Of a stretch of DNA of 64,000 bases, positions 23,246 through 54,407 are shown piece after piece (within the stretch, counting starts at the first letter, position 1; each line of letters starts with the position of its first letter). Position numbers and translations under genes: made by a program. Source of the stretch: Escherichia coli 042 (GTDB taxonomy: Bacteria; Pseudomonadota; Gammaproteobacteria; Enterobacterales; Enterobacteriaceae); the NCBI RefSeq assembly GCF_000027125.1, contig NC_017626.1. One strand, given 5' to 3'. Under the pieces are notes generated by a model. The model saw only the letters and a list, made by a program, of their open reading frames with translations, made no database searches and was not told the origin of the DNA.

Positions 23246-23560
23246 AGGATGCTCCTGTTATGGTCGTTATGTCGGATAACCTCTTCCAACAGTGCATTTG
23301 CAGGTGAATATAAGGCAATGGTTTAAGATTTCAGCCAGGCTAAGATACCCAGCAGAGAATCTTGAAATAATTAACAAACAAAGGAGTTACAGTTAGAAAT
23401 TGTAGGAGAGATCTCGTTTTTCGCGACAATCTGGCGTTTTTCTTGCTAATTCCAGGATTAATCCGTTCATAGTGTAAAACCCCGTTTACACATTCTGACG
23501 GAAGATATAGATTGGAAGTATTGCATTCACTAAGATAAGTATGGCAACACTGGAACAGAC

Positions 23561-43770: not shown

Positions 43771-45054
43771 TTACTTCTTCGCCTCTGCAACCACTTTACT
43801 ACCCACGCCGCGGTTATTGTATTCCCACATGCGGTTGTAGTTAGTGTCATTCAGATTGCGTTGTATTTCGTCGCTATCGTCAACGCTGCCGGTGTTACCT
43901 GCGAATGGACGATTGGAAATCACCGCATCGGCCCACGGTTTCGCCGTGTTAAAACCTTCGTTGATGGCGCTATCACGGATCACCACCTGACCGTTGGTAT
44001 TGGCATCAACATCCAGCGAACGACCCAGTTGCGCCACGCCATCACCGGAAGCATTGAAACGGCTGTTTACGGCGAGGAAACCGTAATAGATGTTAGACAG
44101 CGTAGCCGGTGCAAACACATACGCTTCTTGCTGAGTACGTGAGTTCACCACGCGGAATTCGGTGTTATCGAACACCACTGCGCCGCGACCAGAAACGATA
44201 TCCACATCCCCTTCAATGTAACTGTTGGTCACCAGAGTACGCGGCTGACGGTTGGTTTCCAGACGGTTTTGCACACCACTGTTGGTGACAAAGAAGGTAT
44301 TTTGACGACCGAGAATGTTGACGTTATTGATCTGCACTTTGTCGCCATCAGTACGCAGTGCCACCGCCGGATGGTTACCTGCATCTACGCTATCGCCCAG
44401 CGTGTTTTCGATGGTCAGGTTTTGCAGTTGCAGGCCATTGTTTTGTGACCAGAAGACCGCAGAGCAGAGAACGCCGATACTGTCGCTGCGTTTGCTCTGG
44501 CAGCTATCGTACATATACCACGCTGGTTTACCTGGCATATATTTGCCGCGCGGGTTGACGTCATGACGCCAGTCGGCAGGGCTCATGCCCCCATCAAGGG
44601 AAAGCCCAATCTTCACATCAATCGGTTTTTCACCTGTACCGTACAGAGTAATTCCACCCGGAGCGGCAGGGACATATACCGTTCCCTGATACTCACCAGG
44701 CATCACGGCAATATACTGGCGCTTGTTGGTGCGCTTGATAATTGCCGCATCTACCGCCGCCTGAATCGTGGTATGCGTTACACCTTGAGTACCCGCCGGG
44801 CCGACAACAAAGTCAGGTTGCGCAGGCAGGGTAATCGGGGAAGGATTCCACGCTGCCGCACCTGGTGTCAGGGATGCAAAATAGTGTTGAGCATCGAAAT
44901 TCTGCGCTTCTTTTGCCGACAGAATCGGGCGAGAAGAGGTACCAGGCGCGGTTTGATCAGAAGGACGTTGATCGGGCGGTGTTGAGCTACAGGCGGTCAG
45001 CGTCACGCCAAAAGCCAATGCCAGCGCCAGACGGGAAACTGAAAATGTGTTCAC
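43771..45054 (-). CDS. ybhC: Pectinesterase-family outer-membrane lipoprotein YbhC
   Basis: 427-aa ORF with lipobox LTACSS; last host gene before the lambda attachment site. Confidence 0.9.
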   Translation of the reverse strand: MNTFSVSRLALALAFGVTLTACSSTPPDQRPSDQTAPGTSSRPILSAKEAQNFDAQHYFASLTPGAAAWNPSPITLPAQPDFVVGPAGTQGVTHTTIQAAVDAAIIKRTNKRQYIAVMPGEYQGTVYVPAAPGGITLYGTGEKPIDVKIGLSLDGGMSPADWRHDVNPRGKYMPGKPAWYMYDSCQSKRSDSIGVLCSAVFWSQNNGLQLQNLTIENTLGDSVDAGNHPAVALRTDGDKVQINNVNILGRQNTFFVTNSGVQNRLETNRQPRTLVTNSYIEGDVDIVSGRGAVVFDNTEFRVVNSRTQQEAYVFAPATLSNIYYGFLAVNSRFNASGDGVAQLGRSLDVDANTNGQVVIRDSAINEGFNTAKPWADAVISNRPFAGNTGSVDDSDEIQRNLNDTNYNRMWEYNNRGVGSKVVAEAKK

Positions 45055-45100
45055 AGGTTGCTCCGGGCTATGAAATAGAAAAATGAATCCGTTGAAGCCT

Positions 45101-45115
45101 GCTTTTTTATACTAA
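45101..45115 (+). other. attL core (lambda att common core O) - left prophage junction
   Basis: gcttttttatactaa core; host arm (ccgttgaagcct) on the left, lambda P' arm (gttggcattataaaaaagcattgcttatcaatttgttgcaacgaacaggtcactatcagtcaaaataaaatcattatttg) on the right. Confidence 0.9.
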
Positions 45116-45188
45116 GTTGGCATTATAAAAAAGCATTGCTTATCAATTTGTTGCAACGAACAGGTCACTATCAGTCAAAATAAAATCA

Positions 45189-46259
45189 TTATTTGATTTC
45201 AATTTTGTCCCACTCCCTGCCTCTGTCATCACGATACTGTGATGCCATGGTGTCCGACTTATGCCCGAGAAGATGTTGAGCAAACTTATCGCTTATCTGC
45301 TTCTCATAGAGTCTTGCAGACAAACTGCGCAACTCGTGAAATGTAGGCGGATCCCCTTCGAAGGAAAGACCTGATGCTTTTCGTGCGCGCATAAAATACC
45401 TTGATACTGTGCCGGATGAAAGCGGTTCACGACGAGTAGATGCAATTATGGTTTCTCCGCCAAGAATCTCTTTGCATTTATCAAGTGTTTCCTTCATTGA
45501 TATCCCGAGAGCATCAACATGCAATGTTGTAGGGATGGCAATTTTTACACCTGTTTTGCTTTGCTCGACATAAAGATATCCATCTACGATATCAGACCAC
45601 TTCATTTCGCATAAATCACCAACTCGCTGCCCGGTAACAACAGCCAGTTCCATTGCAAGTCTGAGCCAACATGGTGATGATTCTGCTGCTTGATAAATTT
45701 TCAGGTATTCGTCAGCCGTAAGTCTTGATCTCCTTACCTCTGATTTTGCTGCGCGAGTGGCAGCGACCGGGTTTGTTGTTATATGGCCTTCAGCTATTGC
45801 CTCTCGGAATGCATCGCTTAGTGTTGATCTGATTAACTTGGCTGACGCCGCCTTGCCCTCGTCTATGTATCCATTGAGCATTGCCGCAATTTCTTTTGTG
45901 GTGATGTTTTCAAGTGGAGCATCAGGCAGACCCCTCCTTATTGCTTTAATTTTGCTCATGTAATTTATGAGTGTCTTCTGCTTGATTCCTCTGTTGGCGA
46001 GGATTTTTTCGTAGCGATCAAGCCATGAATGTAACGTAACAGAATTATCACTGTTGATTCTCGCTGTCAGAGGCTTGTGTTTGTGTCCTGAAAATAACTC
46101 AATGTTGGCCTGTATAGCTTCAGTGATTGCTATCCTCCTGTCTCGGCCTAATCCAAACTCTTTACCCGTCCTTGGGTCCCTGTAGCAGTAATATCCATTG
46201 TTTCTTATATAAAGGTTAGGGGGTAAATCCCGGCGCTCATGACTTCGCCTTCTTCCCAT
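45189..46259 (-). CDS. int: Lambda-type tyrosine integrase
   Basis: 356-aa ORF MGRRRSHERRDLPPNLYIRNNGYYCYRDPRTGKEFGLGRDRRIAITEAIQANIELF matches lambda Int. Confidence 0.95.
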   Translation of the reverse strand: MGRRRSHERRDLPPNLYIRNNGYYCYRDPRTGKEFGLGRDRRIAITEAIQANIELFSGHKHKPLTARINSDNSVTLHSWLDRYEKILANRGIKQKTLINYMSKIKAIRRGLPDAPLENITTKEIAAMLNGYIDEGKAASAKLIRSTLSDAFREAIAEGHITTNPVAATRAAKSEVRRSRLTADEYLKIYQAAESSPCWLRLAMELAVVTGQRVGDLCEMKWSDIVDGYLYVEQSKTGVKIAIPTTLHVDALGISMKETLDKCKEILGGETIIASTRREPLSSGTVSRYFMRARKASGLSFEGDPPTFHELRSLSARLYEKQISDKFAQHLLGHKSDTMASQYRDDRGREWDKIEIK

Positions 46260-46455
46260 TTCTGATCCTCTTCAAAAGGCTACCTGTTACTGGTCGATTT
46301 AAGTCAACCTTTACCGCTGATTCGTGGAACAGATACTCTCTTCCATCCTTAACCGGAGGAGGGAATATCCTGCATTCGCGCACCCATCGACGAACTGTTT
46401 CAAGGCTTCTTGGGCGCCGCTGGCGTGCGTTCCACTCCTGAAGTGTCAAGTACAT
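46237..46455 (-). CDS. xis: Excisionase
   Basis: 72-aa ORF MYLTLQEWNARQRRPRSLETVRRWVRECRIFPPPVKDGREYLFHE matches lambda Xis; overlaps the int start. Confidence 0.95.
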   Translation of the reverse strand: MYLTLQEWNARQRRPRSLETVRRWVRECRIFPPPVKDGREYLFHESAVKVDLNRPVTGSLLKRIRNGKKAKS

Positions 46456-46560
46456 CGCAAAGTCTCCGCAATTACACGCAAGAAAAGCCGCATTGATGCG
46501 GCGATGGTAGGTCTGGATATCTTGAGAAATGAACTGGCCTCATCGAGTGTGAGGCTGTGG

Positions 46561-46905
46561 TTAGTCCTTGCGTAGCTCACTGATTCTTCTGTAAGTCTCT
46601 GGTGCTTTGTTTCCGTGTATCTTCATTTCAGACTTCAACAGAGCAACGAGGGAATCCCATTCGTTGAGGATGCCTTTGAATGCCGGAACGCGCTTTGCAA
46701 CCTTGTCGAATGAATCTCTGATTTCTGGGATCTGCTCAACAAGTGCAACGCATCGTCGGAAATCGGCTGCGTCATGTGGAGCACCGAAGTGATGACCATA
46801 GATATTCTTTTTCAGTCCACATGCGATTGAGGCAAGAGTTGCGCTACTGATGCCGACATCGCCAGTTGATTGCCATTTCAAAACCTTCATAGCCAAATCT
46901 GACAT
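46561..46905 (-). CDS. Hypothetical phage protein (b-region)
   Basis: 114-aa protein from MSDLAMKV with GGAG 8 nt upstream; the track ORF extends 9 codons further upstream into a terminator hairpin. Confidence 0.5.
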   Translation of the reverse strand: MSDLAMKVLKWQSTGDVGISSATLASIACGLKKNIYGHHFGAPHDAADFRRCVALVEQIPEIRDSFDKVAKRVPAFKGILNEWDSLVALLKSEMKIHGNKAPETYRRISELRKD

Positions 46906-46920
46906 TTCTTGTCTCCAATA

Positions 46921-46945
46921 AAAAACCGCCATCAGGCGGCTTGGT
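46921..46945 (-). terminator. Rho-independent terminator within the early-left transcript
   Basis: Minus-strand hairpin ccgcctgatggcgg followed by ttttttatt. Confidence 0.5.
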
Positions 46946-47005
46946 GTTCTTTCAGTTCTTCAATTCGAATATTGGTTACATTGTTTTCATATATGAATAA
47001 ATAAA

Positions 47006-47218
47006 TTAGCTTTTTTCGTTGCCTTCGCTTTCTTTATTAATTTTAACAAACTCGTTTTTACCACGCTCTCCAAATGCGTCTTTAGAGTCGTTGTATCCGC
47101 AATCGCAGCACACATAATCTCCAGACCATCCACGCATTGTTTTTTCTTTTGCAATATTTCCAGAACCGCATTTTGGACAAGACATATCACTACCTCCAAA
47201 GCATGAGTGAGATGACAA
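47006..47218 (-). CDS. Small Zn-ribbon protein
   Basis: CPKC...CCDC cysteine pairs (MSCPKCGSGNIAKEKTMRGWSGDYVCCDCGY); true start may be the internal Met. Confidence 0.45.
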   Translation of the reverse strand: MSSHSCFGGSDMSCPKCGSGNIAKEKTMRGWSGDYVCCDCGYNDSKDAFGERGKNEFVKINKESEGNEKS

Positions 47219-47281
47219 CGTAACATTGATTGGAGATTAACAATAGATTGCTGATGTAAAAGATATGTATAAGCTTCGCTT

Positions 47282-47986
47282 TCAAAGTGGAGGCTCTGGT
47301 AGCGGCATCCAGTGTGACGGCTCACATACCCCCTCAACACCGTTCATGTAAAAGAATTGAAATAACCCTTTACCTTTGTGAAACCCTACCATCTGCTCTT
47401 TTGTGTCTGAACAATAAACCAAAACATCTTCTTCGTTTGGCATTCGCTCACTACAGCTTATCCAACTATCCGGAGTTCCCGGAGAGTTGCCATTTACATC
47501 GAAGTTTGGCTCTGCGTCCTGAACCAGGAGAATGTAACCATTCTTGGCTGTATCAAGTTCTAACGCCTCGGTGACGGTGCCGAAATAGCGATTACCTAAA
47601 TCAGCATCACAAGTGCTTACATCAATGGAAACTTCCATGCCTTCGATTAATTCTGGCAAGTTGTAAGTTTGGCTTACAGGTTGGCTACCCTGAAGCATGG
47701 CGGCGCGGTGACACCAGATAATCCAGCCAAGCGCCATATCCCATGCCATGTATTCTCTATCGCCATTTTTTGCCCTACGGCGATCTACAGATTCCCCGAA
47801 ACGCTTCTCCATAAATAATTCATAGGCTGCTCGTTCATCCGATACTGCTGCCAGTGATGCCAGTGCAATTTTTAATGCGGTAAGCATGTTGTTTTGATCT
47901 TCATCGAGTCCGAACGGTATTTCATCCCGTGCTGACTCAATGCTGGTAATCGTGTTCTGTAACCATTCTTTGGTAAGAGTATTCAT
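47282..47986 (-). CDS. Phage protein with DUF551-like C-terminus
   Basis: 234-aa ORF ending ...CEPSHWMPLPEPPL, a C-terminal pattern typical of DUF551 prophage proteins; tightly packed in operon. Confidence 0.5.
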   Translation of the reverse strand: MNTLTKEWLQNTITSIESARDEIPFGLDEDQNNMLTALKIALASLAAVSDERAAYELFMEKRFGESVDRRRAKNGDREYMAWDMALGWIIWCHRAAMLQGSQPVSQTYNLPELIEGMEVSIDVSTCDADLGNRYFGTVTEALELDTAKNGYILLVQDAEPNFDVNGNSPGTPDSWISCSERMPNEEDVLVYCSDTKEQMVGFHKGKGLFQFFYMNGVEGVCEPSHWMPLPEPPL

Positions 47987-47988
47987 AA

Positions 47989-48180
47989 CTATTTCACTTT
48001 AATCTCAATATTTCGCAGCTTTAGCTCTACTGGCAGGTCTGACTTTCCTGTTAATGCTAATGCGAGATTTTCAGGAGTAATGAGAGCAGTTATTGTTTTT
48101 CCCCTCGCCAGACGAATAATCATTCGTATCTCGCAATCGTCACATGCTCCCGGTCGAACAATTGAGATTTGTCCGTTCAT
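47989..48180 (-). CDS. Hypothetical phage protein (63 aa)
   Basis: Intact ORF with 2-3 bp spacing to neighbours on both sides. Confidence 0.4.
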   Translation of the reverse strand: MNGQISIVRPGACDDCEIRMIIRLARGKTITALITPENLALALTGKSDLPVELKLRNIEIKVK

Positions 48181-48181
48181 C

Positions 48182-48808
48182 TCACTTCCCCTTCACACCA
48201 ATGTTGGCGGCGGCGCGCTCGGCTTCACTTTGTTCCCAAAACCACTTGTGAAGCGCCATAAGCTTTTCGTCAATCGGTGCATATTTGCGATTAAAGTAGG
48301 CCTGAGCATCTTTCTCAGATTCGTCCGGTAATTCGCCTGGGCCAAACAGTGTGTTATAAATCCATGCCAGTCCGCTTTTAGCGTCGCCAGTCGATTGCCA
48401 TTCGATAATGGCAGCCTGCATGACCAGAATGTTTTTCCCGATTAACAGGTCCAGTTCTTTGTACCGGTTGCGGATGTATGCATTCTCGCTTTGTAATTTT
48501 GCGTTGCGCTTCTCTGCGGCTTCCAGATCAACTCTCAGCTTCCCTACCGTTAGCGCAATATCCTCGTTCTCCTGGTCGCGGCGTTTGATGTATTGCTGGT
48601 TTCTTTCCCGTTCATCCAGTAGTGCCAGCACGGTTTCTGGTCCGGTCAGAAATTTGAAGGCGTTGAGCGCATCAATATCCACACCGTAATCCTTAAGTTC
48701 CTGTTCACTTAACAAATCATCATCAACTGGCAACATTAACAGGCGTTCCATTGCCGGAATTGCACGTTCTGCCGCCAGTCGCAGAGCCTGATAGTTAATC
48801 TCGCTCAC
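48182..48808 (-). CDS. Ead/Ea22-like coiled-coil protein
   Basis: 208-aa ORF with central coiled-coil ([31 protein letters not shown]); family call from memory. Confidence 0.4.
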
Positions 48809-48988
48809 TGGTTGCCTCCTTTGCGCAACATCGCATTCAGATATTTGTTTTGATTCACTGATGGAAAAGAATTTCTCTTAAGCAATTCCTCTCTCGATGG
48901 CATTGGCTTTACGCGTTGGCGAATAATCATTTCTGCCGGAAGAATGCCGGGATTGTATGCAAGTCCTCTCATGGTAAATTCCTCTTTG

Positions 48989-49303
48989 TTAATTTATTCG
49001 TATGCCTGCTCTTTCTTCATCGAGTTTTTTTAGCTTGTATCGCATAGCTCTTACTGAATAAATTGAGCGGCAGGTTGCAATTGCTATTTCTTCTGCGGAG
49101 AACTTACCGAAAAGTGATACTTCGGCTCTTGTCCATCGTCTTCCACGAAGTCGGCTAACAATGTCAGCGCCAATCCTTGTTGCTTTCGCCATTACTGCTT
49201 TTTCAGTCCTTTCCAGTTTTTCAGCGATAACTTCAACTGGCATTGTCGCCGCCACTTCGCGCAAGAAATCGACTTCCCATTTCTCCCATGGAGTCTTTTT
49301 CAT
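48989..49303 (-). CDS. Hypothetical phage protein (104 aa, possible HTH)
   Basis: Basic ORF immediately downstream of the Gp157-like gene. Confidence 0.4.
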
Positions 49304-49314
49304 AGGCGATACCG

Positions 49315-49803
49315 TTATTTGATAAGAAGTGAAGGTTTCCCAACTTTGAGTTGAGCGCCGGGGATATTTATTCCTGCTTTTAGTTGGTGTTTGATTGCTA
49401 GTTTGTCGGCTTTAATTGTCGTTTCAAACTCAACGTATTCTTGAGGAAGGGCGCTTGAGTCGATGATTTCTACAGTTTCTGACGGTTTGCGGATTGTTAC
49501 CTGGTGAATACCTGCTCGAATCTTTTTCTTGCCAACCATTTCAAGCGATGACGCTATATATGATTTGATGCTGTCAATCTTATTTTGAATTACTGCGGCT
49601 CGCTCATTTAGTGACTTTGCCTCTTCCTTGAGGCGTTCAGCATAACCAGATTCATTTTTAATAATGGCGAGAAGTTGCTCTATTTTATCGGTAAATTCTC
49701 CTTCCATGCCTTCTATTGTGTCAGCAATCATCTCTGGCTCTAAATCTGAATCCATCAATTTTGCGTATTCATTGGCTATTTCATATAGTTTGCTCACTGG
49801 CAA
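49315..49803 (-). CDS. Gp157-like recombination-module protein
   Basis: 162-aa acidic coiled-coil ORF overlapping the recT stop; resembles the Siphovirus Gp157 family that accompanies phage annealases. Confidence 0.5.
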   Translation of the reverse strand: MPVSKLYEIANEYAKLMDSDLEPEMIADTIEGMEGEFTDKIEQLLAIIKNESGYAERLKEEAKSLNERAAVIQNKIDSIKSYIASSLEMVGKKKIRAGIHQVTIRKPSETVEIIDSSALPQEYVEFETTIKADKLAIKHQLKAGINIPGAQLKVGKPSLLIK

Positions 49804-50692
49804 CCTCCAGTTTCGCTTTGCATTCTATGTAAATGGCTTGTACGTTCTGCTGCAATTTCATTCCAGATGTCAGGCGATATGCTTCTGCAAAATATCGCTT
49901 CAAATCATCCATGTTTTCTGCCTGAGCCATTTCATCGCAAAGAAGTTGTACTTTATCCATTATTTCCTGCTGGCGTTTCCGTTCATCTTCGCGGATATCT
50001 TCCTCTGATTTGTGCGGCATAACTGGTTCAGTCCACACACCTTCTTCTTCGTTTAGTACGTGAATAGCACTATCAAGACGTGATGCCTTAGGCCAATACT
50101 TGCTTGCACGCTTTACGACCGTCTTTCGCGCCATCTCATTCCAGTGATTTACCCATGGTCCTTTATCGCTGAATGCTGCCTTGCTTGTTTTCCTTACAGC
50201 CTCAATTTCAGCCAGACTCATCTCTTCCGTTAGATAATCACCTGCTGGCGTCTTAACTGTGCAGTAAACGCCAACGATATCACCACGATCACCGAAGGCG
50301 TTGTATTTATGGGTTGGTGCTTTATCAAGCCCGTTTGACTCATAGGTATCGTTAGCATGAACAAGTTTTGCCTGACCCCATGAGATAACACCAGACTCCA
50401 TTGCAATATGGAGCAATCCCATATAACTGATATCAAGGCAAACCATGCCGTCGCGCGGAACTAGATAAGCAAGTTTGCTGGCCGGGTTTAAGGTGATGCC
50501 GATCGCCGCAACATTGATGATGGCGTTCTGTGCGCTGGTTGGATTTGCCAGTGCCGTTTTAGCCAGGTAATCATTTTTCTGGAAATACTGAATTGCAAAC
50601 TGGCTTTCCTTAGCCCATGTCACCGTCTGTTCAGTCAATGCTCCGCAGAATAACTGCTCCTGCTGTTTAACGAATTCAACGATATTGCTCAT
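49781..50692 (-). CDS. recT: RecT-family single-strand annealing protein
   Basis: 303-aa ORF with RecT/Bet-like core; occupies the bet position of the early-left operon. Confidence 0.75.
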   Translation of the reverse strand: MSNIVEFVKQQEQLFCGALTEQTVTWAKESQFAIQYFQKNDYLAKTALANPTSAQNAIINVAAIGITLNPASKLAYLVPRDGMVCLDISYMGLLHIAMESGVISWGQAKLVHANDTYESNGLDKAPTHKYNAFGDRGDIVGVYCTVKTPAGDYLTEEMSLAEIEAVRKTSKAAFSDKGPWVNHWNEMARKTVVKRASKYWPKASRLDSAIHVLNEEEGVWTEPVMPHKSEEDIREDERKRQQEIMDKVQLLCDEMAQAENMDDLKRYFAEAYRLTSGMKLQQNVQAIYIECKAKLEVASEQTI

Positions 50693-51000
50693 GCAGCTTC
50701 TCCATAAATATGTCTGCGTTTGAATATTGCGAAGGCATATTCAGCCTTAACTCTTTCGGTTATTGCATCCCAGAACCATTCAGCGGCTTTTTCCTGATAG
50801 TTACAGTCATCATCTTCCAGCCAGTCGATAGCGTCCTTAGTGTGTTCATCTGGTTTATATGAGCGAAGCATTTCGCTTATTGGGTCGCAACGTTTGCAGA
50901 GGCGATCAACTTCACTGTTGATTCGTTCGTAATCTTCATCAGTAAAACTTGCGATTATTTGCGATATTTCACGCTTATCATTCAGAGTCAGAATCATCAT
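50689..51000 (-). CDS. Hypothetical acidic protein in gam position
   Basis: 103-aa ORF whose stop overlaps the recT start (ATGA); Asp/Glu-rich. Confidence 0.5.
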   Translation of the reverse strand: MMILTLNDKREISQIIASFTDEDYERINSEVDRLCKRCDPISEMLRSYKPDEHTKDAIDWLEDDDCNYQEKAAEWFWDAITERVKAEYAFAIFKRRHIYGEAA

Positions 51001-51081
51001 CTTTCTCCTGTTCTTTGTGCTGATTGAGCATTTCTTTCATCTGACGAATGAATTCTTCGTCTGACCAGTTATCTGTAAAAC

Positions 51082-51234
51082 TCATTTCCTGCGATACCAC
51101 GGAAGGTTGATCGCTGATTTCATCGCTTTATTTGCTTCAAGCCACATTTTTGAATCACCAATAAATCTGGCTATTACTGCTTTGTTCTGTGCAGCACGAA
51201 GCATCTGGTGATTGATGGCTATTTCATTGCGCAT
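51082..51234 (-). CDS. Kil-like small protein (tentative)
   Basis: 50-codon ORF MRNEIAINHQMLRAAQNKAVIARFIGDSKMWLEANKAMKSAINLPWYRRK found by reading, directly after the cIII-like ORF; assignment by position and loose motif only. Confidence 0.35.
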   Translation of the reverse strand: MRNEIAINHQMLRAAQNKAVIARFIGDSKMWLEANKAMKSAINLPWYRRK

Positions 51235-51353
51235 AACGCCTCCAGTTGTTTCTTTGCTGCTCTGATTAATTGTTTAACTCGGCGTGATAATTCAGATTCG
51301 TGCGGGTAGAAAGCGGACATGACGCCGCTACCCGCGAGCTGAAAGTGCATCAT
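51219..51353 (-). CDS. cIII: cIII-like protein
   Basis: Internal start MHFQLAGSGVMSAFYPHESELSRRVKQLIRAAKKQLEAL resembles the lambdoid cIII core; start codon uncertain. Confidence 0.5.
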   Translation of the reverse strand: MMHFQLAGSGVMSAFYPHESELSRRVKQLIRAAKKQLEALCAMK

Positions 51354-51547
51354 GGGTAACTCCTTATATTTGATTGCATAACGAAAACGCCTCGAATGAA
51401 GCGTTATTGGTATGCATATAAAAAGGCCCTCACACTGGAGGGCAAAGAAGATTTCCAATAATCAGAACAAGTCGGCTCCTGTTTAGTTACGAGCGACATT
51501 GCTCCGTGTATTCACTCGTTGGAATGAATACACAGTGCTTATTCGTA

Positions 51548-52018
51548 CTAATAAAATACCCAATTTTCTGTTTCTTGGTTGTGTCCAAAGTTATATTCAA
51601 TATCTGGTGTTGATGTATCAATATTCTTCATCCCATCAACAAGAGTTGATACAACAGCCAAATCTTGTTCTATTCTCATTAAATGGTATTTCTTCCGGCG
51701 CAATAAACTTTCAATAGCAAGTTTCTTCGTTGGGAATGCAAAAGATCTTTCTGCATTTTTTGCTACTTTCTTAATTGCATATCTATTTCTCCTTTGTTTC
51801 CATTCCTGTAACCACTGATTTGGTGCTGGTTTAAAATTAACAATCCAATGCGCAGGAACCAACCATGCATAATGCTCTGTCTGATGAAAAGCTATATATT
51901 GAAGTGCGAATATTTTTATCCCATCTTCTTCAACTGTCGCCTGGAATCTCCAGAAAACAGGCATTCCATCATGTTCAGTTTCTGATTCAGGAAAAGGTAC
52001 GCTCCATGATTTTGTCAT
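51548..52018 (-). CDS. Hypothetical protein immediately downstream of N
   Basis: 156-aa ORF with GAGGTGA RBS, starting 9 bp after the N stop; no recognisable family. Confidence 0.55.
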   Translation of the reverse strand: MTKSWSVPFPESETEHDGMPVFWRFQATVEEDGIKIFALQYIAFHQTEHYAWLVPAHWIVNFKPAPNQWLQEWKQRRNRYAIKKVAKNAERSFAFPTKKLAIESLLRRKKYHLMRIEQDLAVVSTLVDGMKNIDTSTPDIEYNFGHNQETENWVFY

Positions 52019-52026
52019 ATCTCACC

Positions 52027-52353
52027 TCAAATAAGTGGTTTGCTGCCTAATTTCATTTTCTGTCGACCAACACAAGTCACACCAATTTCACTGCGTGGCT
52101 TGCTGTACCATGTGCGCTGATTCTTGCGCTCAATACGTTGCAGGTTGCTTTCAATCTGTTCGTGGTATTCAGCCAGCACCGTAAGGTCTATCGGATTCAG
52201 TGCGCTTTCTACTCGTGATTTCGGTTTGCGATTCAGCGAGAGAATAGGGCGGTTAACTGGCTTTGCGCTTACCCCAACCAACAGGGGATTTGCTGCTTTC
52301 CATTGAGCCTGTTTCTCTGCGCGACGTTCGCGGCGGCGTGTTTGTGCATCCAT
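52027..52353 (-). CDS. N: Antitermination protein N (lambda-type)
   Basis: MDAQTRRRERRAEKQAQWKAANPLLVGVSAKPVNRPILSLNRKPKSRVESALNPIDLTVLAEYH matches lambda N (Arg-rich boxB-binding motif at N-terminus); the track ORF extends upstream of the true start. Confidence 0.9.
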   Translation of the reverse strand: MDAQTRRRERRAEKQAQWKAANPLLVGVSAKPVNRPILSLNRKPKSRVESALNPIDLTVLAEYHEQIESNLQRIERKNQRTWYSKPRSEIGVTCVGRQKMKLGSKPLI

Positions 52354-52463
52354 CTGGATTCTCCTGTCAGTTAGCTTTGAGTAACGCGCCGTGATGCTTA
52401 TCTCCACGGTTGCTGTCTTGCAGCTGCATTTCGCGCTACTCAAAGCTTTCTGCTTTGAATGCT

Positions 52464-52494
52464 GCCCTTCTTCAGGGCTTAATTTTTAAGAGCG
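52464..52494 (-). promoter_or_regulatory. nutL (boxA cgctctta + boxB gccctgaagaagggc)
   Basis: Minus strand reads cgctcttaaaaattaagccctgaagaagggcagc, identical to lambda nutL. Confidence 0.9.
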
Positions 52495-52538
52495 TCACCT
52501 TCATGGTGGTCAGTGCGTCCTGCTGATGGCTTAAAATT

Positions 52539-52606
52539 ACAAGGAAGATTGTATGTTGTAAACAAGAAATATTGTAAAAAAGAGCGTGAAAAACAAATTC
52601 CATTGT
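52539..52606. promoter_or_regulatory. OL operators (phage 434 type), overlapping pL
   Basis: Three 14-bp sites of the ACAA-N6-TTGT type: acaaggaagattgt (52539-52552), acaagaaatattgt (52562-52575), acaaattccattgt (52593-52606). Confidence 0.8.
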
Positions 52607-52656
52607 TTTTAAACGGAAAATAGTTTGTTTTTTGGTTGTCGAAATCGAGGTGAGGA

Positions 52657-54009
<1,353 letters not shown>

Positions 54010-54128: not shown

Positions 54129-54407
54129 ATGCAACTTACAAGTACTCGCAAGAAAGCGAATGCAATTACAAGCAACATCCTAAATCGAATTGCTGTACGT
54201 GGTCAGCGAAAGGTGGCCGACGCGTTAGGGATTAATGAATCGCAAATTTCACGATGGAAAGACAGCTTCATCCCAAAAATGGGAATGCTTCTGGCTGTTC
54301 TTGAATGGGGTGTTGAAGACGAGGAGTTGGCGGAACTGGCTAAGAAAGTAGCCAGAATGCTGACAAAAGAAAAAGCCCCGAAGAACGGCGAATTCTTCGA
54401 GGCCTGA
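54129..54407 (+). CDS. cII: cII transcriptional activator
   Basis: MQLTSTRKKANAITSNILNRIAVRGQRKVADALGINESQISRWK...MLLAVLEWGV aligns with lambda cII; the track ORF starts further upstream inside the tR1 region. Confidence 0.85.
   Translation: MQLTSTRKKANAITSNILNRIAVRGQRKVADALGINESQISRWKDSFIPKMGMLLAVLEWGVEDEELAELAKKVARMLTKEKAPKNGEFFEA

Follow-up and report, generated by a model that had tools for sequence, protein, structure and literature searches.

A seven-gene block between xis and the recombination module of an Escherichia coli 042 prophage, very probably the exchangeable distal segment of a lambdoid PL operon

In Escherichia coli 042, seven closely packed minus-strand genes (ORF list) exactly fill positions 46561-49303 of the window, as the whole 64,000-nucleotide stretch of contig NC_017626.1 analyzed here is called. 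This block very probably corresponds to the distal, nonessential part of the PL operon (the 'ea' or 'exo-xis' segment) in a lambdoid prophage inserted at the lambda attachment site, and would be assembled from exchangeable cassettes. The block is already known in kind, being an ordinary lambdoid patchwork of catalogued, individually common cassettes.

Gene content and operon setting

The block is placed at the distal end of the PL operon because it is co-oriented with N/nutL, cIII, kil, RecT and Gp157 and holds no internal promoter-like site, a scan of 46561-49303 for sigma-70 consensus sites having returned none. Upstream of the block, the same strand carries, in this order, Gp157, RecT, a phrog_3486 protein, Kil, CIII, a phrog_1636 protein and lambda N, with a cI-like repressor of 210 aa beyond nutL; the identity of Gp157 and RecT is also backed by the RefSeq annotations of homologous loci. 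We take nutL to match that of phage lambda, and N presumably matches lambda N. The immunity region with the 210-aa repressor and the RecT/Gp157 module are not those of lambda, unlike N and nutL, which is a further instance of mosaicism. Also, terminator-like hairpins are observed at 51443 and 51405, upstream of cIII, and at 46942 and 46502, before and after ORF114. A CII box (46468-46481) marks the distal limit of the block, and a second box of the same type was found by pattern search within cII (54162-54175), as expected for PRE. By analogy with lambda, N/nutL antitermination would let PL transcripts reach the block, and its seven genes would be made as delayed-early products once the N-modified RNA polymerase reads through the terminators. 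The terminator before ORF114 would in turn keep unmodified transcription from ORF114, xis and int.

The gene map agrees with a preliminary description of this DNA in placing the block between xis and the recombination module. However, the name 'b-region' used there is wrong, since the block is located on the same side of att as int and xis, inside the PL operon (ybhC, then int). In lambda, that name belongs to the stretch from the tail genes (J) to attP, across att from int. The slot is instead that of the lambda 'exo-xis region' (PMC7093339, PMC10834534), whose equivalent in P22 and HK620 is the 'ea' or 'hka' region.

The seven genes are considered real, and not chance open reading frames (ORFs), because their products match PHROG and Pfam families. 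A PHROG match is found for all seven (E <= 5e-23), and four of the seven have a Pfam match at or near the curated cut-off, DUF551, Ead_Ea22 and DUF2737 being above it and the zinc ribbon below. The preliminary description had reported six tightly packed small ORFs, which is correct for the packing and one short for the number. Its guesses of a Zn-ribbon, a DUF551-like and an Ea22-like protein are all borne out by the Pfam and PHROG profiles, whereas the three ORFs it left unassigned are in fact four: DUF2737 and HkaF, which have only a family name, and ORF114 and orf104, which have no Pfam family. The gene junctions overlap or are of 16 nt at most, except for the two gaps that flank eaG (96 and 100 nt), and Shine-Dalgarno sites precede most of the starts when the minus strand is read directly. 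For example, stop and start overlap as GTGA at the DUF2737/Ea22 junction and as AAGGGGAAGTGAGATG at the Ea22/orf63 junction. The mechanical ORF list gives starts that are too long for ORF114 and EaG; the corrected starts, leading to genes of 345 and 180 nt, agree with the RefSeq, HK620 and P22 annotations. A search of the block proteins against NCBIfam gave no useful names, sequence searches of the PDB with four of them returned chance matches only, and an Rfam search of 44800-53500 at E <= 1 returned nothing.

Table 1. Features of the block and its surroundings. The last column gives presence in a comparison set of 80 IMG/VR loci anchored on Gp157, counted over the 49 loci whose sequence extends 4.2 kb or more beyond Gp157 in the downstream direction.
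Feature	Position	Strand	Evidence or remark	Loci
ORF114, 114 aa	46561..46905	-	phrog_1229 at 7e-52; predicted all-helical domain	19/49
Intrinsic terminator hairpin and T-run, fused to the ORF114 ribosome-binding site	46923..46942	-	Conserved cassette boundary	
eaG/hkaD, 59-aa CxxC...CxxC zinc ribbon	47006..47185	-	phrog_2945 at 3e-31; start at 47185	5/49
96-nt noncoding spacer upstream of eaG	47186..47281	-	About 99% column identity among the window, HK620, P22 and two E. coli prophages	
DUF551 protein, 234 aa, EaA/HkaE class	47282..47986	-	PF04448 at 2e-18, residues 174-233	Full length 1/49, partial 35/49
orf63, hkaF homologue	47989..48180	-	90% identical to HK620 HkaF; phrog_1222 at 3e-40	5/49
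Ead/Ea22-like protein, 208 aa	48182..48808	-	Ead_Ea22 N-terminal and helical part, Ehly2-type C-terminal domain	Full length 1/49, partial 34/49
DUF2737 (hkaI / P22 orf56), 55 aa	48805..48972	-	PF10930 at 1.1e-32, full length	49/49
orf104, 104 aa, two tandem helix-turn-helix repeats (sigma-70-region-4/Myb-like)	48989..49303	-	phrog_323 at 2.8e-20	49/49, 96-100% identity
Host genes, ybhJ-like and ybhC-like	End at 45054 (ybhC 43771-45054)		ORF list	
int, lambda-type	45189-46259		ORF list	
xis, lambda-type	46237-46455		ORF list	
CII box TTGCGTGTAATTGC	46468..46481	-	Pattern search; lambda-type PI promoter region, just upstream of xis	
Weaker terminator-like hairpin GCCGCATCAATGCGGC, then TTTTCTT	46487..46502	-	Downstream of ORF114	
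Fossil of a P22-type xis N terminus HSLTLDEASSFLKISRPT	46488..46562	-	Between ORF114 and the PI box/lambda-type xis/int	
Gp157 (Mu Gam-like) and RecT, recombination module bounding the block	49315..50692	-	PF05565 at 5e-38; phrog_253	
Lambda N gene	52027-52353	-	phrog_271 at 1e-25	
nutL: boxA CGCTCTTA; boxB GCCCTGAAGAAGGGC	52487-52494; 52464-52478	-	Read directly, beyond N	

Variable cargo and cassette boundaries

Pieces of the block are found in 3,690 of the 5,426 complete E. coli genomes, the best of which covers 62% of it and none 80% or more. Among 50,697 phage records, 548 match, with a best coverage of 46% and again none at or above 80%. In alignments to three E. coli prophages, breakpoints fall within both the DUF551 gene and the Ea22 gene, and the segments match different strains. 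Moreover, the DUF551 protein is a mosaic of at least three segments, different DNA segments being common to different prophages. Among the same complete genomes, the N-terminal part of the DUF551 gene is present in 471, ORF114 in 914 and orf104 in 297.

The comparison of related loci (Table 1) suggests that five genes of the block are variable cargo and that the two nearest the recombination module, DUF2737 and orf104, travel with that module. These two are set apart from the variable cargo because every one of the 49 loci carries both at high identity, and they appear to belong, functionally and evolutionarily, to the Gp157-RecT module. The single locus with both the Ea22-like and the DUF551 proteins at full length is L008 (IMGVR_UViG_646862322_000001, 42,738 bp), where all twelve scored proteins, from int to RecT and including a 44-aa xis-remnant ORF, are 98-100% identical to those of the window (ten at 100%). 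Judging from these identities, L008 is almost certainly the same prophage, that is, a self-match, and none of the complete RefSeq E. coli genomes has the combination found in L008 and the window. The slot, described beforehand as highly variable, is so for five genes, which are mosaic in genomes and phages, but not for DUF2737 and orf104. The ORFs are not all characterized proteins free of variation between phages, and the initial idea of an accessory cargo stands, although weakened.

An internal terminator had been proposed at 46921-46945; it is confirmed at 46923-46942 and lies on a cassette boundary. On the gene strand (46942-46923), an 8-bp stem, five of whose pairs are G-C, closes a loop of 4 nt and is followed by a T6 run; the hairpin folds with -13.4 kcal/mol (z = -2.65 relative to shuffled sequences). 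With a G+C-rich stem, a short loop and a 3' T-run, this putative rho-independent terminator has the expected elements. The hairpin, the 63 nt that precede it and the ribosome-binding site (RBS) and first codons that follow (…AAGCCGCCTGATGGCGGTTTTTTATTGGAGACAAGAAATGTCAG) show little or no difference among P22, HK620, Gally and E. coli prophages, and the exact terminator motif is present in 14 of 90 fetched loci. In P22, the gene behind the hairpin is eaC, which is unrelated to ORF114 although the RBS is identical, and in HK620 a cII-dependent integration promoter follows. Because different genes or elements follow the same sequence, the hairpin is regarded as a recombination boundary common to different cassettes. 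It fits the 'boundary sequence' idea that Clark et al. are said to have proposed for HK620 in 2001.

The window hairpin is also identical to one that the P22 annotation (23398-23418) assigns to the antisense aI RNA as its terminator. However, the T-run is located on the sense strand in the window, the plus-strand side having none, and ORF114 takes the place of eaC, so the C1-dependent aI promoter inside eaC is absent. A pattern search found no CII box within ORF114. With a T-run on the sense strand alone and no CII box in ORF114, a role in sense-strand termination, overridden by N, would be likelier than an aI-type antisense role. Intrinsic terminators of the lambda tL type likewise consist of a G+C-rich hairpin and a T-run inside an N-antiterminated operon.

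A second type of boundary is observed at the end of Ea22-type genes. In the 80 loci, 40 long ORFs end in AAAGGAGAGTGA(T/G)ATG, and at least eight different downstream genes follow this junction, which comprises K-G-E codons, a stop, a well-placed Shine-Dalgarno site and the start of the next cassette (AAGGAG-stop-ATG). All Ea22 proteins are reported to end in a '+GE' tripeptide of 'unknown significance' (PMC7093339), for which the Shine-Dalgarno site of the next gene could offer a simple explanation at the DNA level. The window variant of the junction (48182-48200, minus strand) encodes KGK, and the Ea22-like protein accordingly ends in KGK and not in K/R-G-E, while its close relatives end in KGE. 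The cassettes would recombine at short conserved boundaries of these two kinds, the terminator with its RBS and the AAGGAG-stop-ATG junction.

Finally, an older exchange has left its mark beyond ORF114. The 25 codons of the xis fossil are 68% identical over 25 aa to residues 3-27 of P22 Xis and give weak HTH_17 and excisionase profile matches. This remnant marks an old module junction, the scar of one integration module replacing another.

Block products and alternative explanations

The cargo would consist of small protein-binding modulators of host and phage regulators, tuning the lysis-lysogeny decision and host physiology. One of these proteins is the Ea22-like protein, which carries the Ead_Ea22 signature (PF13935, residues 2-109, E = 1.4e-28, 100.7 bits against a cut-off of 27) and whose gene occupies the hkaG/eaD position, in the xis-to-recombination slot of the lambdoid early-left operon. 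The Ea22 proteins of lambda, phi24B, 933W and P27 are prolysogenic and tetrameric (PMC7093339), with variable C-terminal domains (PMC10834534). In the window protein, residues 95-207 (113 aa) are 95% identical to 'enterohemolysin 2'. Ehly2, whose determinant comes from phage C3208 of E. coli O26, differs from it in the N-terminal half. Over 1,000 protein clusters from prophages carry this C-terminal domain with 90% conservation or more, on unrelated N-terminal halves. According to PMC7093339, which cites Oscarsson et al. 2002, the ehly2 determinant is no hemolysin, and the clone leads to the release of ClyA, a cytolysin of the host. The Ea22-like protein may be pictured as an oligomeric helical scaffold that would display a swappable C-terminal effector domain. 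No PDB chain matches it at E <= 1, the lambda Ea22 C-terminal domain (8DSX) included. The C-terminal domains differ between Ea22 variants (PMC10834534, PMC7093339), and an 8DSX-type domain defines lambda Ea22 proper and not the wider Ead/Ea22 family. An AlphaFold2 model of the C-terminal domain was unreliable, with a predicted local distance difference test score (pLDDT) of 53, and was not used for fold comparison.

The same C-terminal domain gives what is probably a misleading signal in a defense-system search, where the PADLOC model PDLC02890, labeled 'DpdH', matches residues 96-197 (48215-48520, minus strand) at 6e-37. A Dpd system, which modifies and restricts DNA through 7-deazaguanine, was rejected as an explanation: no other Dpd model (DpdA, B, C and others) or defense model is matched among the nine neighboring proteins scanned with PADLOC, and the domain is the common Ea22 C-terminal domain. 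A search of the literature on DpdH and on the P22 ea genes found nothing relevant. The model is probably contaminated or mislabeled and could yield false defense-system calls.

The DUF551 domain scores 67.4 bits against a gathering cut-off of 22 in Pfam, the reference set of the family being PF04448 with P22 EaA, HK620 HkaE and YfdS. The C-terminal 135 aa of the window protein are 65% identical to HkaE, from which its N terminus differs, and with EaA only the DUF551 domain is common. As for orf63, the annotators of HK620 noted that hkaF resembles an ORF of the clone that carries enterohemolysin 2.

EaG, encoded downstream of the DUF551 gene, is 100% identical to HK620 HkaD and 93% to P22 EaG. 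It matches Lar_restr_allev (PF14354) with 23.1 bits (8.7e-5), below the cut-off of 28.6, and other zinc-ribbon families score similarly; on these profiles, it would not be placed in the Lar restriction-alleviation family. The whole eaG cassette (46906-47281), including 96 nt of upstream and 100 nt of downstream flank, is about 99% identical in P22, HK620 and E. coli prophages. These noncoding flanks are unusually long for so tightly packed an operon. Folding predictions allow GGAGG, the Shine-Dalgarno sequence of eaG, to base-pair with a CUCCAA that lies upstream of it, although the fold is not significant against shuffles (z = -0.54). A structured RNA in the flanks was rejected, with z values of -0.54 upstream and -1.75 downstream and no Rfam match, and no promoter-like site was found in the upstream spacer. 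Also, a 117-codon ORF in an alternative frame, which takes in the end of the DUF551 gene, the spacer and the whole of eaG (46987-47340, minus strand), is likely to be spurious, as it lacks a Shine-Dalgarno site and the family support belongs to the EaG frame. Sequence variation in this interval is too small to test coding.

The start codon of ORF114 is the ATG at 46905, which a GGAG site precedes (GGAGACAAGAAATG), whereas the ATG at 46932 falls inside the hairpin. The protein is 97% identical to 'ORF114' of phage 434 and matches 275 phage records, 150 of them Vibrio phages and some Arthrobacter phages. Its family comprises 1,862 clusters (50% identity) at E <= 1e-3 from enterobacterial, Vibrio, Arthrobacter and Clavibacter phages, and in phages of Vibrio, Arthrobacter and Yersinia its relatives are accompanied by other early accessory genes. 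Eight residues (G18, S20, P43, D45, D48, R51, C52 and W83) are invariant even among relatives with no more than 30-60% identity to the window protein, a signature resembling a conserved binding or active site. The AlphaFold2 model has seven helices (pLDDT 96, predicted TM-score 0.89). It matches no fold in the PDB and only uncharacterized family members in BFVD, and the protein has no Pfam family. Longer proteins that contain ORF114 were discarded as a clue, for they carry no recognizable extra domain in Pfam or PHROGs, and a WQSTGD hexapeptide common to ORF114 and the Ea22 C-terminal domain (a nine-residue match, E = 0.03) is most likely a chance match. Tentatively, ORF114 may be a protein-binding modulator. 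That it, or EaG or orf63, is an unrecognized host-takeover or anti-defense effector of a new structural class is a doubtful prospect.

Next to the recombination module, DUF2737 scores 112.1 bits against a cut-off of 25 and is 96% identical to HkaI and 79% to P22 Orf56; the reference set is PF10930 with HK97 gp38, P22 Orf56 and HK620 HkaI. In the case of orf104, P22 Abc1 also matches phrog_323 (1.3e-23), and the Gally annotation of the orf104 homologue is 'Anti-RecBCD protein 1'. Both proteins are of similar length (94 aa for Abc1, 104 for orf104), both have helix-turn-helix repeats of the form RW(S/T)xxE...GRS..SV, and both genes lie within one gene of the recombinase, Abc1 abutting erf and orf104 abutting Gp157 next to RecT. 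However, they cover different, partly overlapping stretches of the phrog_323 profile, and direct comparison gives no BLAST match, a hhalign probability of 26% and, from hidden Markov model to sequence, about 10 bits over the second repeat only. The partner genes differ as well, being Gp157/RecT in the window and Abc2/Erf in P22; Pfam and PHROG searches found no Abc2 homologue in the window's operon, where Gp157 and RecT stand. Then, orf104 is possibly an analogue of Abc1 and is not filed here as a member of its family.

Several points weigh against the interpretation of the block as a distal PL segment of regulatory cassettes. The N dependence is inferred from lambda, and the promoter scan covered sigma-70 consensus sites only. 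The prolysogenic role comes from Ea22 proteins of lambda and Shiga toxin (Stx) phages with C-terminal domains unlike that of the window, and the model of the latter is the unreliable one mentioned above. Moreover, the link between orf104 and Abc1 depends on a shared PHROG and on gene position, direct comparisons being weak.

On position and turnover alone, an anti-defense role of the block is plausible; the preliminary description had said that this slot often holds host-interaction or anti-defense genes. In its full form, this explanation holds that at least one of the proteins, be it EaG as a Lar-like protein, orf104 as an Abc1-like anti-RecBCD protein, ORF114, the DUF551 protein or orf63, inhibits host immunity early in infection. 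Early timing and a position by a RecBCD-countering module fit known anti-defense genes such as Abc2 in HK620 and P22, and a high turnover of cargo is typical of arms-race genes. The match of orf104 and P22 Abc1 to the same phrog_323 also fits, but the role of Abc1 itself is poorly defined. The weak Lar match of EaG could be taken in the same sense, but it stays below the Pfam cut-off and zinc ribbons cross-match readily. In Vibrio phage D53 and Yersinia phage PY54, genes called 'Lar-like' are found close to relatives of ORF114, whereas the fold searches with ORF114 itself came back empty. In other E. coli prophages, the slot holds genes for a MazZ-type dATP/dGTP pyrophosphohydrolase, HNH and ASCH proteins, and the phage MazZ enzyme inhibits host restriction enzymes, as cited in PMC10834534. 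Nonetheless, no demonstrated anti-defense family matches any of the seven proteins in Pfam, PHROG, NCBIfam or PADLOC. The only experimental phenotypes among their relatives are a bias of the lysis-lysogeny balance (Ea22) and ClyA release (Ehly2). An anti-defense island is thus considered unlikely.

Much less probable still is that the genes are expressed from the prophage as morons, superinfection exclusion or defense functions of benefit to the lysogen, with the 'DpdH' match as their mark. In favor of this stand that match and the position of ORF114 between two terminator-like hairpins, as expected of an insulated cassette. However, the block has no promoter-like site and all its genes are co-oriented with PL, the match has no second Dpd or defense model nearby, and the matched domain occurs in more than 1,000 clusters, all annotated as ead/Ea22-like, for which a mislabeled model is the simplest explanation. 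A real candidate for lysogen expression lies elsewhere, beside cI: a 158-aa ORF (52660-53133, minus strand, phrog_2651) with a signal-peptide/lipoprotein-like start is found between nutL/N and the cI-like repressor, and its location at the lambda rexAB position makes it a candidate lysogen-expressed exclusion or defense gene. The idea that the block is decaying filler, recombination debris left between the integration and recombination modules, hardly seems tenable. The xis fossil is a genuine one, RefSeq annotates truncated DUF551 and Ea22 pseudogenes in the slot of other strains, and the DUF551 and Ea22-like proteins are chimeric. Yet all seven reading frames are intact, with Shine-Dalgarno sites, and each protein matches its PHROG family end to end. 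The cassettes are 90-100% conserved at the protein level in Salmonella and E. coli phages, functional ones such as P22, HK620, Gally and 434 included, and ORF114 keeps its eight invariant residues among divergent relatives.

Taken as a distal PL segment, the block carries little weight as a discovery, because it is textbook lambdoid mosaicism with cassettes each found in hundreds of sequenced E. coli genomes. Its use is that the truly variable genes of the slot can be told apart from those of the RecT/Gp157 module, and that it gives a clean case of recombination at conserved boundaries, one terminator and RBS standing before two unrelated genes. What remains of interest is the ORF114 family (phrog_1229), large, structurally unassigned and worth an experimental screen, together with the two boundary motifs and the DNA-level explanation of '+GE'.

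Comparison with P22, HK620 and lambda

The closest counterparts of the block are the 'ea' region of P22 (eaC-eaG-eaA-eaI-eaD-eaF-orf45-eaE-orf56) and the 'hka' region of HK620 (hkaD-hkaI). Both occupy the same slot, from xis to the recombination (anti-RecBCD) genes, on the same strand and with the same gene order, which is also seen in Gally and in RefSeq annotations. The window contains members of the DUF551 class (EaA/HkaE) and of the Ead class (EaD/HkaG), and its terminator and eaG-flanking spacers are identical to theirs. The N-terminal part of the Ea22-like protein is common to HkaG and EaD, whereas its other segments differ. Also, the recombination modules differ, being RecT/Gp157/orf104 in the window, Erf/Abc1/Abc2 in P22 and Sak4/SSB/Abc2 in HK620.

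The exo-xis region of lambda and Stx phages (ea8.5, ea22, orf61, orf63, orf60a and orf73), a subject of work by the Wegrzyn and Donaldson groups, lies in the same slot of a lambda-type PL operon, with the int, xis, N and nutL of lambda. Its genes are absent from the window apart from the Ea22 N-terminal signature. Nonetheless, this region encodes a protein with the Ead_Ea22 signature, in which an N terminus and a helical region precede a variable C-terminal domain, as in the window, and it is reported to be mosaic and to influence the lysis-lysogeny decision (PMC7093339, PMC10834534).

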